Of a stretch of DNA of 64,000 nucleotides, positions 6,418-56,959 are shown piece by piece (position 1 is the first letter of the stretch; the number at the start of each line of letters is the position of its first letter). Location of the stretch: assembly GCA_003216275.1 (NCBI GenBank), contig QCJC01000001.1:192787-256786 (forward strand). The letters run 5' to 3'. The notes under the pieces are model-generated. The model saw only the letters and a program-made list of their open reading frames with translations. It was not told the DNA's origin and ran no database searches. This stretch comes from Prochlorococcus sp. AG-402-P18 (GTDB lineage: Bacteria > Cyanobacteriota > Cyanobacteriia > PCC-6307 > Cyanobiaceae). A program made the translations under genes and the position numbers.

Positions 6418-7836
6418 ATGACCAAGGCACATTTTGGATTAATCGGTCTTGGAGTAATGGGAGAGAACCTTGTCCTAAATGCAGAGCGAAATGGCTTTTC
6501 AAGTGTGGTCTATAACCGTACTTATCAAAAAACTGAAGATTTCCTTTTGGGTAGGGGTTTAAATAAATCAATTCAAGGTGCTAAGGATCTTCAAGAATTT
6601 GTATCAAAGCTTGAAAGACCAAGAAGAGTATTAATGATGGTTAAAGCTGGTGCGGCAACTGATGCTGTAATCAATCAAATCTCACCTTTCCTTGAGGAAG
6701 GGGATTTACTGATCGATGGTGGAAATGCTCAATTTATGGATACAGAAAGAAGAGTTAGAGAACTTGAGAGTAAAAGTTTTGGATATATAGGGATGGGTGT
6801 GTCTGGTGGCGCAAAGGGCGCATTGGAAGGTCCAAGCATGATGCCTGGTGGCACAAAGAATTCATACGATGCGATAGAGAGTTTGTTGAATAAGATGGCA
6901 GCTCAGGTTGAAGATGGACCTTGTGTTACATATATAGGACCAGGCGGATCTGGGCATTTTGTGAAAACTGTTCACAACGGAATTGAATATGGTATCGAGC
7001 AAATTCTGGCTGAGGCTTATGACTTGATGAAAAGAGTTTGTGGGATGAATGGTGATGAAATGGCGGATGTTTTGGGCTATTGGAATAAAACAGAAGAACT
7101 TTCATCTTATCTTGTTGAAATCACTGAGGCATGTTTACGAGTTAAGGATCCTGAGGACAGTTCAGATCTTGTTGAAAAGATCATGGATAAGGCTGGTCAA
7201 AAAGGTACAGGGTTATGGACAGTAGTCAGTGCTCTCGAACTTGGAGCATCTGTTCCAACTATTTATGCGTCTTTAAATGGAAGGGTTATGAGTTCGATGA
7301 AAGATCAAAGAAATTATGCTGAAACAAAATTGAATGGCATAAAACCGTCCGTTGTAGATTTTGGAAAACCTTCAGAAGGTATGCCATTACTTATGGATGC
7401 AGTTGTCTTGGCTACAATTGCTAGCTACGCACAAGGTATGGATATTTTAAGATTGGCGTCGGATGAATACAATTACGACTTTGATATGCCCTCCATTGCC
7501 CAAATATGGAAAGGTGGATGCATCATAAGGTCTACTCTTTTGAGTCGTATACAAAATGCATTTAAAAATGATTCGAAATTAAGTAATCTTTTGCTTGATA
7601 GTTGGTTTACTGAGCAAGTTAATAATCGTCTTTCTGGCTTGACACAGGTTGTCTCTGAGTCTGCTAAATCTGGTATACCTGTCCCATGCTTAAGTAGTAC
7701 ACTTGATTATCTAAATAGTTTTAGAACATCTAGGCTCCCACAAAATTTGGTTCAGGCAATGAGAGACTGCTTTGGCTCTCATACCTATGAGCGTATAGAC
7801 AAGGCTGGATCATTTCATACAGAGTGGATTGACTGA
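6418..7836 (+). CDS. gnd: 6-phosphogluconate dehydrogenase (NADP, decarboxylating)
   Basis: GLGVMG, SGHFVKTVHNGIEY, MDKAGQKGTG, RDCFGSHTY. Confidence 0.97.
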   Translation: MTKAHFGLIGLGVMGENLVLNAERNGFSSVVYNRTYQKTEDFLLGRGLNKSIQGAKDLQEFVSKLERPRRVLMMVKAGAATDAVINQISPFLEEGDLLIDGGNAQFMDTERRVRELESKSFGYIGMGVSGGAKGALEGPSMMPGGTKNSYDAIESLLNKMAAQVEDGPCVTYIGPGGSGHFVKTVHNGIEYGIEQILAEAYDLMKRVCGMNGDEMADVLGYWNKTEELSSYLVEITEACLRVKDPEDSSDLVEKIMDKAGQKGTGLWTVVSALELGASVPTIYASLNGRVMSSMKDQRNYAETKLNGIKPSVVDFGKPSEGMPLLMDAVVLATIASYAQGMDILRLASDEYNYDFDMPSIAQIWKGGCIIRSTLLSRIQNAFKNDSKLSNLLLDSWFTEQVNNRLSGLTQVVSESAKSGIPVPCLSSTLDYLNSFRTSRLPQNLVQAMRDCFGSHTYERIDKAGSFHTEWID

Positions 7837-8592: not shown

Positions 8593-9168
8593 TTGATTCC
8601 TGATTCACCACCTACACAAATTTCAATAACACCTCTTATAAAGGGTTCAGAATTTTCAGATTGGGAATCTCTGAATGACACAATTATGGGCGGATCAAGT
8701 CGTGCAAAATGTCGTTTTTCAGATAAGGGTTTATTACTTGAGGGTGACTTAGTTGAAGAAGGAGGAGGCTTTGTTAGTTGCCGCTCTCCGATTTTTAAAA
8801 AACCTTTTAATCTGTCAAATTATTCTGGATTAATTCTTGATGTTGAAGGAGAGGGGAGGACATTGAAACTTGCGATTGCATGTAAGAAAAAACCTATATC
8901 ACTATCAAATCTATTGAAGGGTGATATTCGTTGGGTTGCATCAATACCTACAAAAAAAGATGGAGTTAGCAGAGTTAAAATACCTTTTAAAAATTTGGAA
9001 CCTGCTCGACGAGCAAAGCCTGTAAGATTACCTATTAACTTTGATCCAACTTGTATCAACAGATTTCAATTGCTGCATTCAAAATTTGGTCAGCCCGGCA
9101 AAATGAACTCTGAATTCCTTGCTGGCCCTATCAAAGTCTTAATTAAGTCGATTAGTGCATACTCCTGA
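8593..9168 (+). CDS. CIA30 family (complex I intermediate-associated) protein
   Basis: LNDTIMGGSS and GGGFVSCRS motifs. Confidence 0.85.
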   Translation: MIPDSPPTQISITPLIKGSEFSDWESLNDTIMGGSSRAKCRFSDKGLLLEGDLVEEGGGFVSCRSPIFKKPFNLSNYSGLILDVEGEGRTLKLAIACKKKPISLSNLLKGDIRWVASIPTKKDGVSRVKIPFKNLEPARRAKPVRLPINFDPTCINRFQLLHSKFGQPGKMNSEFLAGPIKVLIKSISAYS

Positions 9169-9550
9169 TTTTATAGACGGCTTGATAGCCGAAGTAGCTA
9201 AGGCAGCCGATCTTTGTATGAAGCCATATATCCATTCGGTTTTTTTAGAAAATCAATTAGATGATAATAATGATCTTGAAGACTTGATTTTTAAAATTCA
9301 GTGTAGAAATATTGACGGCGAAAGAGAAGAATCTATGGATATTGAACTTGAAGTGTATAAAAGTGGAAACGAAGTAAATATGACTATATCTTGGAAAGCT
9401 TTAATAGAGAGACCAATATTATGGCAAGGGAAGCATGCTGTTTGGATGGATAGTTCTTCTGGCATGCAATGTCAGGCGCCTTCATATGGAAAACTTTTTG
9501 AGTCTTTAGCGAGAAGACTTAGGACGGTCTTTAAAGCTTCATTGGTTTAG
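9155..9550 (+). CDS. Conserved hypothetical protein
   Basis: 131-aa ORF overlapping the CIA30 stop; PILWQGKHAVWMD motif of a picocyanobacterial family (recalled). Confidence 0.6.
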   Translation: MHTPDFIDGLIAEVAKAADLCMKPYIHSVFLENQLDDNNDLEDLIFKIQCRNIDGEREESMDIELEVYKSGNEVNMTISWKALIERPILWQGKHAVWMDSSSGMQCQAPSYGKLFESLARRLRTVFKASLV

Positions 9551-54693: not shown

Positions 54694-55797
54694 ATGACTG
54701 CTACAGCTTCTTCACCAAAACTAAGAGTAGATACCCGTGGAACAAATGAGTTGCCGCCACATTTAGATGAAAATCTTTTAACGCCTCGTTTTTACGTAAC
54801 TGAATTTAAGAAAGCTGCCAAGACAGAATTAACTGATGCGCGTGAAGAGTTTGAGGCAATGCTCTCAGAAATGAAGGCTGATTATAATTGTACCCATTTT
54901 GATAGGAAGGCAAGCTTGGATAGATTGCAAGAACTACCTCAAAAATCTAAAGAAGTTTATGAAAGTTATTTAGTAAGATCAGTTATCTCAGAATTCTCTG
55001 GTTTTTTACTATTTAAGGAAATCTCTAATCGACTAAAGAAAGAGGGAAATAGAGATCTTGGCAAACTATTTCAGTTTTTAGCTAGAGACGAAGCCAGGCA
55101 TGCAGGTTTTCTTAGCAGAGCATTAGTTGCGGAGGGGATTGAAGTTGATCTCCCTCATTTAGGCGGAAAGAGAGCAGCGACTTGGTTCCCAATTAGTTGG
55201 GTGATTTATTCAGTTTATCTTTCAGAAAAAATTGGGTATTGGAGATACATCTTGATGGATAGGCACCTTAAGGCTAATCCAGATCAGGCTTTTGCTCCGC
55301 TTTTTGATTTCTTTGAACCATGGTGTCAAGACGAGAACAGACATGGTGATTGTTTTACAGTGATGATGAGATGTTGGCCAGGAATTACCAAAGGGTTTAG
55401 AGGCAAGTTGTTAAGTCGTTTCTTCTTGTGGAGTGTTTTCCTAACTCACACTTTGACAGTTTGTGAAAGGGGTGAGTTTTATGAATTGCTTGGTATTGAT
55501 CCAAAGGAATTTGATGAGGAAGTTATAAAAAGAACGAACCACACATCTAAAAATGCCTTCCCTTGGGTTTTTAATCTTGATGACAATGAATTTTGGAATT
55601 TGAGAAATAAAATTATTGAATCTTTCAGAGCATTTGTAGGTGCTAAAGGTTTAACAAAACCAGTTAAATTTGTGAAGTTTGCTACTTTAATATTTAAGCA
55701 ATTTGCGCTTCCAATGGAGAAGACAAATGCATTGAGATATGATAAAAATGTGAATTTTACCGGTCAAGATATTTTAAATTTTTGGACAGATAAGTAA
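54694..55797 (+). CDS. acsF: O2-dependent Mg-protoporphyrin IX monomethyl ester cyclase, divergent paralog type
   Basis: LTPRFY, di-iron ligands SEFSG, DEARH, SEKIGYWRY, WCQDENRHGD. Confidence 0.9.
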   Translation: MTATASSPKLRVDTRGTNELPPHLDENLLTPRFYVTEFKKAAKTELTDAREEFEAMLSEMKADYNCTHFDRKASLDRLQELPQKSKEVYESYLVRSVISEFSGFLLFKEISNRLKKEGNRDLGKLFQFLARDEARHAGFLSRALVAEGIEVDLPHLGGKRAATWFPISWVIYSVYLSEKIGYWRYILMDRHLKANPDQAFAPLFDFFEPWCQDENRHGDCFTVMMRCWPGITKGFRGKLLSRFFLWSVFLTHTLTVCERGEFYELLGIDPKEFDEEVIKRTNHTSKNAFPWVFNLDDNEFWNLRNKIIESFRAFVGAKGLTKPVKFVKFATLIFKQFALPMEKTNALRYDKNVNFTGQDILNFWTDK

Positions 55798-55812
55798 AAC
55801 TATTTAGATAAA

Positions 55813-56199
55813 TCAAATATCAAATGGATTGCCGGCTTGTGTCTCCAATCCTTTGAAATATTTTCCAAATTGAGCGTTATAGACTTCGTCCTCATCTTGT
55901 GTCACGCATTCTAATGGTCCAATAGCTTTTGAAACGCATAACAAACCGTAACCCTTATCCCTCATCTCTTTTGATAGACCAATACAAGCTTGTTGATCCA
56001 TTTCTCCTGAAATTATTTTAACTGCGCATTCTGAACAACATCCATTTCTGCAAGAGAATGGCAATGTGTCTCCGATAATTTGTCCATGTTCGTCTTTTGA
56101 TTCAAAATTTCTCAATATGTACTCACCTTCAGGTACATCAAAGGTATATGTTTTCCCCTCCTGTTTATGATGAATAGTTATCTGGTGAATTGGTTTCAT
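55813..56199 (-). CDS. 2Fe-2S ferredoxin, FdC2/Fed2 type
   Basis: LPFSCRNGCCSECAV...LLC and C-terminal extension QDEDEVYxxQFG. Confidence 0.88.
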   Translation of the reverse strand: MKPIHQITIHHKQEGKTYTFDVPEGEYILRNFESKDEHGQIIGDTLPFSCRNGCCSECAVKIISGEMDQQACIGLSKEMRDKGYGLLCVSKAIGPLECVTQDEDEVYNAQFGKYFKGLETQAGNPFDI

Positions 56200-56206
56200 T
56201 GAATAT

Positions 56207-56542
56207 CTATTTCGGCGGTGTTATATCTCTTCTTTCTGGAGGTTCAGGGGGATGACTTGCATGTTGCCAAAGCTCTTCAATATCTAATGTTTTGGTTAAT
56301 CTTTCTCCACCAAATCGAAGTTTTAACCAAGCAATCGTTGTTGAATCTTCCGCTATGACAGCTTCATAACCTTCTTCTTCAGTGATTTTGAATTTGTTAA
56401 CTAATGAAGAATTTAAGAACCACATAGGATAGTCCTCACCTTTGCGACTCCTTCTCTCATGAAAGGATTCTCTTAATTGTCCATTACCCTGTAATTGACC
56501 TTCTGGGGCTAGAAGAACATTTAGGGTTTTGGTCTCCGACAT
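56207..56542 (-). CDS. Hypothetical protein, possibly a divergent Ycf54 homolog
   Basis: E-x3-ERR...W-F/L and AVI...IAWLKLRF resemble Ycf54 motifs (recalled). Confidence 0.55.
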   Translation of the reverse strand: MSETKTLNVLLAPEGQLQGNGQLRESFHERRSRKGEDYPMWFLNSSLVNKFKITEEEGYEAVIAEDSTTIAWLKLRFGGERLTKTLDIEELWQHASHPPEPPERRDITPPK

Positions 56543-56740
56543 TATTTAAGAATCAAAAATGGTCTTGATCTTAGGCGTGATATTTCCTAGGACCTTAATT
56601 AGATAACTTTAGTAAAAGGAATTACTTAGACGGAAATAGTTTGATAGATCTTCACAAGATTTTCTTGATTATCTGTAAGTAATATTCCTAATTATTTAAA
56701 AGGTCTATATATAAGGTTTGTTTAATTGATAATTAATTAT

Positions 56741-56959
56741 TTAAGCCTCTTTTTTGGGTGCCTCAGGCTTTGCCTTTAGAGCCTCAGCTTCTGCTGCTTT
56801 CTTAGCTTCTTCAAAATCAATTCTGTTTTGTAGTTGCCCTGAAGCTCTCATCCAATCGTTAACACTAGCTTCCTTGCCAGCGGCTTCACATTCCTCTTGA
56901 TACTTCAAGAATGGATACCAATGATGAGTTGCATTCTTGGAATCTGTAAAATTAGTCAA
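56741..56959 (-). CDS. Small hypothetical protein
   Basis: 72 aa, TTG start, Ala/Glu/Lys-rich tail. Confidence 0.6.
   Translation of the reverse strand: MTNFTDSKNATHHWYPFLKYQEECEAAGKEASVNDWMRASGQLQNRIDFEEAKKAAEAEALKAKPEAPKKEA

Follow-up and report, generated by a model that had tools for sequence, protein, structure and literature searches.

We analysed a 64,000-nucleotide (nt) stretch of the genome of Prochlorococcus sp. AG-402-P18 (hereafter the window), in which three tightly packed genes encode a cyclase of the AcsF family, a plant-type ferredoxin and a protein of 111 amino acids (aa) that we call X, our working name for the minus-strand open reading frame (ORF) at 56207–56542 (Table 1). 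An earlier note on this DNA had read the three genes as a self-contained second chlorophyll cyclase module, in which an FdC2-type ferredoxin and a hidden relative of the cyclase subunit Ycf54 serve the AcsF enzyme. The layout that it described was accurate: the coordinates, the 15-nt gap between the converging genes and the quoted motifs were all confirmed, and RESFHERR, MWFL, AVIAED and IAWLKLRF were all found in the X translation. The results below suggest that low-light Prochlorococcus-type cells, thought to be without a Ycf54 helper, probably still have one.

Table 1. Features of the X–ferredoxin–acsF2 locus in the window and of the tandem locus L054
Feature	Sequence	Position	Strand	Length	Remarks
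acsF2 (chlAII-type Mg-protoporphyrin IX monomethyl ester oxidative cyclase)	window	54694..55797	+	367 aa	AcsF family models
Spacer between the convergent acsF2 and ferredoxin stop codons	window	55798..55812		15 nt	
[2Fe-2S] plant-type ferredoxin, Fed2/FdC2-like	window	55813..56199	-	128 aa	~21-residue C-terminal extension; PF00111
Gap between X and the ferredoxin gene	window	56200..56206		7 nt	co-transcription presumed
X (diverged Ycf54 paralogue; proposed AcsF2-specific auxiliary subunit)	window	56207..56542	-	111 aa	
Region upstream of X (presumed promoter of the X–ferredoxin operon)	window	56543..56740	-	198 nt	up to ORF 56741-56959
hemN2, ho2	L054		-		first in the order of L054
X'	L054	2484-2783			
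acsF2'	L054	4322-5335	-		
X	L054	5510-5830			
Ferredoxin	L054	5960-6322			
acsF2	L054	6418-7461	-		

X is a real gene, because it has 195 homologues at E ≤ 0.001, 41 invariant columns among the 111 of its alignment (though the members are just 62–82% identical to X) and low pairwise ratios of non-synonymous to synonymous substitution (dN/dS 0.11–0.29 among orthologues, with synonymous sites near saturation). It is under purifying selection. The earlier note had expected such a gene to pass as hypothetical, and the homologue of Prochlorococcus sp. MIT 1223 (WP_320665024.1) indeed carries the annotation "hypothetical protein" in the public record.

Ycf54 (Slr1780/LCAA; PF10674; PDB 5M2P, 3HZE and 3JSR) is the auxiliary subunit of the O2-dependent cyclase in oxygenic phototrophs. 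Searched as a single sequence, X had no Pfam or NCBIfam match at E ≤ 0.1, and phmmer found nothing significant in the PDB; among 38 diverse members of the X family, seven matched PF10674, all below threshold (best E 0.018). We then compared profiles built from three successively broader X alignments with 177,635 PDB sequences: one of 20 homologues, one of 38 members drawn from an exhaustive HMMER search, and one of 66 members that adds Cyanobium-type sequences. The three best matches of the 20-homologue profile were Ycf54 entries (E 0.16–0.75), as were all five matches of the 38-member profile (best E 3.2e-4). The 66-member profile matched five Ycf54 sequences (E 7.9e-6, 1.9e-4, 8e-4, 1.7e-3 and 7.1e-3), followed by an unrelated entry at E 0.85. 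When X profiles were aligned by hhalign with 12 genuine Ycf54 sequences cut from related genomes, the match had probabilities of 91.3% (E 9.5e-7) and 86.6% (E 4.4e-6), with 73 columns colinear.

Structural comparison gave the same answer. Two AlphaFold2 models of X, with predicted local distance difference test (pLDDT) values of 83.8 and 88.5, contain four helices and strands at 4–13, 40–43, 59–64 and 80–87. In Foldseek searches of 350,542 PDB chains with these models, Ycf54 structures (3HZE, 3JSR, 5M2U and 5M2R) took the top four and then the top seven places, with probabilities of 0.99–1.00 and template modelling (TM) scores of 0.46–0.60; the matches ranking below them had probabilities of at most 0.82 and TM scores of ~0.4 or less. 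Six-frame searches of 300 genomes of the phylum with the X profile gave strong matches only in the window's own family, Cyanobiaceae. In 38 other cyanobacterial genomes (37 outside the family and G037, a marine Synechococcus within it), there was one weak match each, and the five that we tested were all canonical PF10674 proteins (97–138 bits). Because hidden Markov model searches of the PDB, profile–profile alignment, modelled structure and reverse genome searches all converge on Ycf54, X is very probably a remote Ycf54 homologue, as the earlier note had supposed of the 111-aa ORF.

We found that X is a paralogue of Ycf54, again as that note had it. In 20 of 20 Cyanobiaceae loci, pdxJ is immediately followed by canonical ycf54, and 27 of 151 genomes of the family hold both genes; these two facts rule out that X is a relocated ycf54 orthologue. 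In the window genome (L238, G000:C3:35406-39140), the next gene begins 28 nt past pdxJ, and ycf54 has been cleanly deleted. A basal metagenome-assembled genome (MAG), G002, retains only a C-terminal relic of ycf54 after pdxJ (L237:3281-3394, G002:C15), which is equivalent to residues 65–102, is 50% identical and has a stop upstream.

The AcsF protein of the window scored 453.8 bits against NF010172 (cut-off 391) and 340.5 bits against TIGR02029 (cut-off 192.5) and contains the di-iron motifs DEARH and DENRHGD. In an alignment of 68 AcsF sequences, numbered on a 358-aa AcsF1, its positions 199–201 and 203–216 correspond to the AcsF consensus, and position 206 is P, as is typical of AcsF2. AcsF scores in the 151 family genomes were bimodal, at ~490–512 bits for type 1 and ~328–360 bits for type 2, and the window protein fell into type 2. 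It is 47–55% identical to the ho2–hemN-linked ChlAII copies of other cyanobacteria and 36–50% identical to copies without this linkage, with 38–45% within the AcsF1 clade, own family included. In a maximum-likelihood tree, the type-2 AcsFs of Cyanobiaceae form one clade (Shimodaira–Hasegawa-like approximate likelihood ratio test 100) on a very long stem (1.35 substitutions per site); the low-light AcsF2 proteins that partner ferredoxin-linked X form a subclade (support 99), and high-light Prochlorococcus AcsF groups with AcsF1. By these sequence measures, the window AcsF, the sole one of its genome, is assigned to the low-oxygen AcsF2/ChlAII type. It has been published that chlAII/acsF2 takes the place of chlAI in low-light Prochlorococcus (PMC4500134, Table 1; PMC7980375).

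These results changed part of the picture from which the analysis began. With one AcsF and no BchE in the window genome (1.85 Mb, 96.9% complete), a second or alternative cyclase there is ruled out; of the suggested "low-light/low-O2/low-Fe alternative cyclase", the low-oxygen lineage stands and the role as an alternative to another cyclase in the genome falls. The idea of a related di-iron enzyme that modifies chlorophyll was likewise abandoned, given the placement inside the AcsF2 clade and a second di-iron motif region identical to that of other AcsFs. The expectation that a low-light genome would have no recognizable Ycf54 was borne out, as the window genome yielded no PF10674 match. As a separate observation, the AcsF of high-light Prochlorococcus (L134–L136; G128, G073 and G018) matches the model in two pieces, 5–223 and 220–336, within one open frame of ~395 aa, a pattern that points to sequence inserted downstream of the second di-iron motif region.

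The X–ferredoxin–acsF2 trio is conserved as a unit: we examined 26 loci from small (low-light Prochlorococcus-type) genomes and found it in every one, with differing flanks. In the larger genomes of Cyanobium, Synechococcus and Vulcanococcus, the X homologues are 28–52% identical and stand divergent beside ho2–hemN2, usually 0.1–6 kb from a convergent acsF2. We found this arrangement beside ho2–hemN2 in 72 of 79 named Cyanobium/Synechococcus loci and in 16 loci of the genome sample, and ho2/hemN2 adjoin in the relatives L042–L057 and L147–L222. In Cyanobium relatives, X therefore belongs to the low-oxygen acsF2–ho2–hemN2 island known from the literature. No ho2 or hemN gene lies beside the window trio, and none was matched within 6 kb on either side in four other low-light-type loci (L058–L061).

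Co-occurrence in the 151 family genomes followed the type of cyclase. Ycf54 was present in 92 genomes, X in 71 and both in 27. All 44 genomes that have only AcsF2 carry X, and 43 of these 44 are missing Ycf54; conversely, every genome with AcsF2 and without X (18 of 18) has Ycf54. The rule that AcsF genomes carry X or Ycf54 has a sole exception, G068. Fifteen genomes have neither X nor Ycf54, and 13 of these, 53–94% complete, are also without AcsF and the extended ferredoxin, as expected if one contig were missing from each. In G027 (genus g28, 1.8 Mb, 99% complete), AcsF (best E 2.4e-4), Ycf54 and X were not found; either the module lies in an assembly gap, or chlorophyll is made differently or not at all in this lineage.

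The history of the pair can be followed in part. A contig assigned to G002, L054 (G002:C233:1-11833; contig of L146, CATBLW010000233.1), holds both types of module in tandem and looks like an intermediate stage that links the Cyanobium island to the trio of low-light Prochlorococcus. Ferredoxin-linked X sequences are monophyletic (support 97) in the X tree, and the two X copies and two AcsF2 copies of G002 pair identically in the X and AcsF trees, which suggests that the X/AcsF2 pair was duplicated as a unit. In the scenario that we propose, AcsF2 and X would originally have been paired in the low-oxygen acsF2–ho2–hemN2 island of ancestral picocyanobacteria; low-light Prochlorococcus would have lost AcsF1, canonical ycf54, ho2 and hemN2 and kept AcsF2 and X, and the ferredoxin gene would have moved beside them. 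The title of the L054 record, "Prochlorococcus marinus str. MIT 9215", is at odds with its gene content.

The ferredoxin of the trio matches PF00111 (Fer2; E 1.8e-11), and PetF structures align to it only as far as residue 107 of 128, which leaves ~21 further residues. Most of 98 high-quality family genomes contain a full-length orthologue, with best matches 48–100% identical; a few complete genomes (G027 and G097) have PetF-level matches only. Among 38 other cyanobacterial genomes (24 families), we found an orthologue in 37, at 44–54% identity and 84.7–125.7 bits (best E 2e-23 to 4e-36). Thirty-four of these reach residues ~125–127 and three stop at 116; G306 has a PetF-like match only. The remaining ferredoxins of these genomes score at most 81 bits, mostly end earlier and are clearly separated from the top matches. 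The one C-type ferredoxin of Synechocystis belongs to the FdC2 subtree (PMC8408499), and FdC2 powers the barley cyclase according to genetic and biochemical evidence (Stuart et al. 2021, PMC8408499). The window ferredoxin therefore appears to be Fed2/FdC2-like, an orthology drawn from its length, universality, score separation and the statement about Synechocystis; the FdC2 assignment of the earlier note agrees with the C-terminal extension and near-universal conservation. Low-light Prochlorococcus-type genomes are the only ones in which the gene adjoins X and acsF2. No conserved flanks explain its position there, as the flanks vary among low-light clades, and its neighbourhood in high-light Prochlorococcus and marine Synechococcus has nothing in common with the window.

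The residues that X shares with Ycf54 point to a docking surface. Highly conserved residues of Ycf54 are A9, F13, E22, E26, D39, F40 and R82, and the D39A, F40A and R82A substitutions abolish CycI binding (Hollingshead et al., PMC5317394). In the hhalign register, A9, E22, E26 and R82 correspond to A12, E25, E29 and R76 of X, and W78 to W72, which neighbours R76, so that the W-x-K-L-R helix is retained; these five residues are invariant or nearly so across the X family. Ycf54 F13, D39 and F40 are replaced by Q16, P39 and M40. An AlphaFold 3 model in a 2026 review places a salt bridge between Ycf54 R82 and D216 of AcsF1 (PMC13297055). We found that D216 is invariant in 68 of 68 aligned AcsFs (D219 in the window protein's own numbering). 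With R76 kept in X and this aspartate invariant, the proposed docking pair appears to be preserved. Alignment position 219 varies with the type: AcsF1 has D there, the ChlAII of other cyanobacteria has K, and Cyanobiaceae AcsF2 has N or S. Chen and colleagues reportedly found in 2021 that the D219G substitution partly frees CycI from Ycf54.

The homology, fold, gene linkage, complementary occurrence and phylogeny described above are consistent with a model in which X binds and activates AcsF2 and the ferredoxin donates electrons to it. AcsF2, as the only cyclase of the genome, would be the catalytic subunit with the di-iron centre. X, probably a small, soluble protein of alpha/beta type that arose from a Ycf54 duplicate, would dock on AcsF2 and stabilize or activate it, as Ycf54 does for AcsF1/CycI. 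Its R76/W72 helix would contact the AcsF2 aspartate (window D219) after the second di-iron motif, with the acidic E25/E29 ridge kept, and the Fed2/FdC2-like ferredoxin, made from the same message as X, would reduce the di-iron centre. We consider it reasonably probable that X is an AcsF2-specific Ycf54-like subunit and that the ferredoxin is the electron donor. We also lean, with somewhat less assurance, towards the broader view that picocyanobacteria evolved another, hidden line of Ycf54 that serves the fast-evolving AcsF2 alone, with X, AcsF2 and the FdC2-type ferredoxin forming a minimal Prochlorococcus cyclase unit.

Several observations weigh against this model. X lies below the gathering threshold of PF10674 (13.2 bits, E 0.11, versus 25 bits), and its modelled likeness to Ycf54 is moderate, not close (TM ~0.5–0.6, root-mean-square deviation 4–5 Å). 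Of the three CycI-binding residues of Ycf54, X retains R82 alone, the equivalents of D39 and F40 being changed. Genomes without X also have the ferredoxin orthologue, unlinked, so the adjacency of the ferredoxin gene here could reflect streamlining, not dedication. In the low-light group, AcsF position 219 is N or T (T222 in the window), and since D219 is replaced in AcsF2, the lineage could work without a helper.

The last point favours an alternative that we regard as unlikely, in which low-light AcsF2 needs no helper, X is a Ycf54 derivative with another job, such as tuning tetrapyrrole flux or stabilizing other chlorophyll-pathway enzymes, and its adjacency to acsF2 is a leftover of the low-oxygen island. 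Helper-independence is reportedly the current published reading for AcsF2 of low-light Prochlorococcus. It would fit the replacement of D219 in every AcsF2-type sequence (by K, by N or S, or by N or T), the loss of the D39 and F40 equivalents and the fact that X in Cyanobium shares its promoter region with ho2–hemN2 and not with acsF2. However, X was retained after ho2 and hemN2 were lost and lies tight beside acsF2 in all 26 low-light loci despite varied flanks, and the complementarity of X and Ycf54 among AcsF2 carriers is perfect (44/44 and 18/18). Neither the R76/W72 docking helix nor the AcsF aspartate varies, X is held by purifying selection, and Ycf54 of Synechocystis interacts with both ChlAI and ChlAII (PMC4500134).

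Less probable still is that X serves mainly as an adaptor that brings ferredoxin or ferredoxin reductase to the cyclase, and does not stabilize AcsF2. The 7-nt gap, the presumed co-transcription and the pairing of X with the ferredoxin gene, fixed across low-light clades, would agree with such a role, as would the interaction reported between plant YCF54 and ferredoxin–NADP reductase (Herbst et al. 2018, cited in PMC7319587). But X stands apart from the Fed2/FdC2-type ferredoxin in ~90 Cyanobium/Synechococcus loci, so that the ferredoxin linkage is secondary and confined to the low-light Prochlorococcus lineage, and the conserved residues of X are those of the AcsF-facing surface of Ycf54. Finally, we think it very improbable that the likeness to Ycf54 is convergent or spurious and that X is an unrelated conserved hypothetical protein beside acsF2 by chance: single-sequence searches were insignificant, the PF10674 match was sub-threshold and TM scores were ~0.5, but three kinds of search and the reverse genome searches converge on Ycf54 alone, and X is linked to acsF2 in more than 100 loci and two different gene contexts.

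X and the ferredoxin gene are presumed to be co-transcribed from their spacing. No terminator-like hairpin was found in the spacer between acsF2 and the ferredoxin gene, and the 3' ends of the two transcripts therefore probably overlap. A consensus scan of the region upstream of X found no promoter-like site; the nearest one on the minus strand, at 56950–56921, falls within the next ORF. The scan for promoters and terminators was uninformative, with counts equal to those of shuffled controls. The trio is flanked in the window by carB on one side and by a 72-aa ORF and a HIBADH-type dehydrogenase gene on the other. The 72-aa ORF (56741–56959, minus strand, upstream of X) encodes a product rich in Lys, Ala and Glu with no family match; it is conserved within the genus, with two copies in L028, but does not belong to the trio in other low-light clades.

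The Cyanobium-type islands had further features of their own. Between divergent ho2 and X' in Cyanobium/Synechococcus loci (L147–L222, for example L159, L154 and L150), there is a conserved element resembling ACGGTATAACGnTACTGTTGTT, followed by the inverted repeat GCAAC-N6-GTTGC; we found no copy of this motif ahead of X or acsF, or anywhere else in the 64-kb window. The Cyanobium-type locus L046 has two ORFs between X' and acsF2, one at 6500–6775 (+) with a Mo-nitrogenase C-terminal domain (PF06967, 96 bits) and one at 6772–7236 (−) that is aldehyde decarbonylase-like (PF11266, 130 bits), as well as a weakly hemerythrin-like ORF at 8991–9470, upstream of acsF2. Short ferredoxin-like matches occur ~2.5 kb past acsF2 (at ~11.8–12.2 kb) in L148, L154, L159, L162, L163, L169 and L178, and just downstream of X' in L150 (6963–7151). 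Nine records (L150, L158, L162, L173, L180, L185, L186, L198 and L222) carry the picocyanobacterial island under unrelated organism titles and are apparently mislabelled; such titles on island MAG records include Bordetella parapertussis, Bifidobacterium breve, Klebsiella and Mesorhizobium.

Few phototrophs on Earth are as abundant as Prochlorococcus. If the proposed role of X is correct, the rule that oxygenic phototrophs need a Ycf54-type subunit would be without a natural exception, and the published picture of a Ycf54-independent cyclase in the low-light group would have to change. The helper would have co-diverged with its enzyme, and the X/AcsF2 and Ycf54/AcsF1 pairs would provide a natural experiment for mapping the interface. 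The fixed linkage of an FdC2-type ferredoxin would give independent bacterial support to the genetic result on the plant cyclase, and would be the first prokaryotic gene-order evidence for this ferredoxin as the physiological donor of the cyclase. The trio would also provide a set of parts ready for use in reconstitution of the cyclase, with short genes directly testable in existing heterologous assays.

X resembles Ycf54 in its size of ~110 aa, its solubility, the same predicted order of secondary structure (helices flanking a four-stranded sheet), the equivalents of A9, E22, E26, W78 and R82 and its genomic tie to an AcsF. It differs from Ycf54 in being ~20–25% identical, in a segment between strands 2 and 3 that is shorter by ~9–10 residues, and in being found only in Cyanobiaceae, in the neighbourhood of AcsF2 rather than after pdxJ.

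Clusters of acsF2, ho2 and hemN2 have been described as chlAII–ho2–hemN in Synechocystis (Fujita et al. 2015, PMC4500134) and as acsF2–ho2–hemN2 in Prochlorococcus of the anoxic marine zones (AMZ) and in Synechococcus RS9917, WH8101 and CB0101 (Ulloa et al. 2021, PMC7980375). The window AcsF belongs to the same lineage, and X homologues lie inside the cluster in Cyanobium and Synechococcus; unlike the cluster, the window has no adjoining ho2 or hemN2, has a ferredoxin gene instead and is without the Cyanobium intergenic motif. A Ycf54-like gene or a ferredoxin in the cluster is mentioned in neither PMC4500134 nor PMC7980375. In the literature searched, we found no Ycf54-like partner of AcsF2 and no cyanobacterial Ycf54-like paralogue, although Chen et al. 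2021 may mention the ORF.

The C-terminally extended ferredoxins FdC2/VirK of barley and Fed2 (Sll1382) of Synechocystis power the aerobic cyclase (PMC8408499; PMC10947542). The window-type ferredoxin is similar in being present as one full-length copy in nearly every cyanobacterial genome searched; what is particular to the window is that its gene adjoins the cyclase gene. We found no description of linkage between cyclase and ferredoxin genes in a prokaryote in the literature searched.

A natural absence of Ycf54 in low-light Prochlorococcus has been reported (Chen et al. 2021, via the citing paper PMC10706213). The window genome resembles the Ycf54-independent CycI (D219G) in that canonical Ycf54 is missing and AcsF2 position 219 is not Asp. 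Unlike that system, every AcsF2-only genome carries a cryptic Ycf54 paralogue, so "Ycf54-independent" may really mean Ycf54-paralogue-dependent. In Alphaproteobacteria, BciE is said to be the auxiliary cyclase subunit, a finding from 2017 ascribed to Chen, Canniffe and Hunter. X, too, would be a lineage-specific small partner of AcsF, with classes of AcsF differing in their helper; unlike BciE, X derives from Ycf54.

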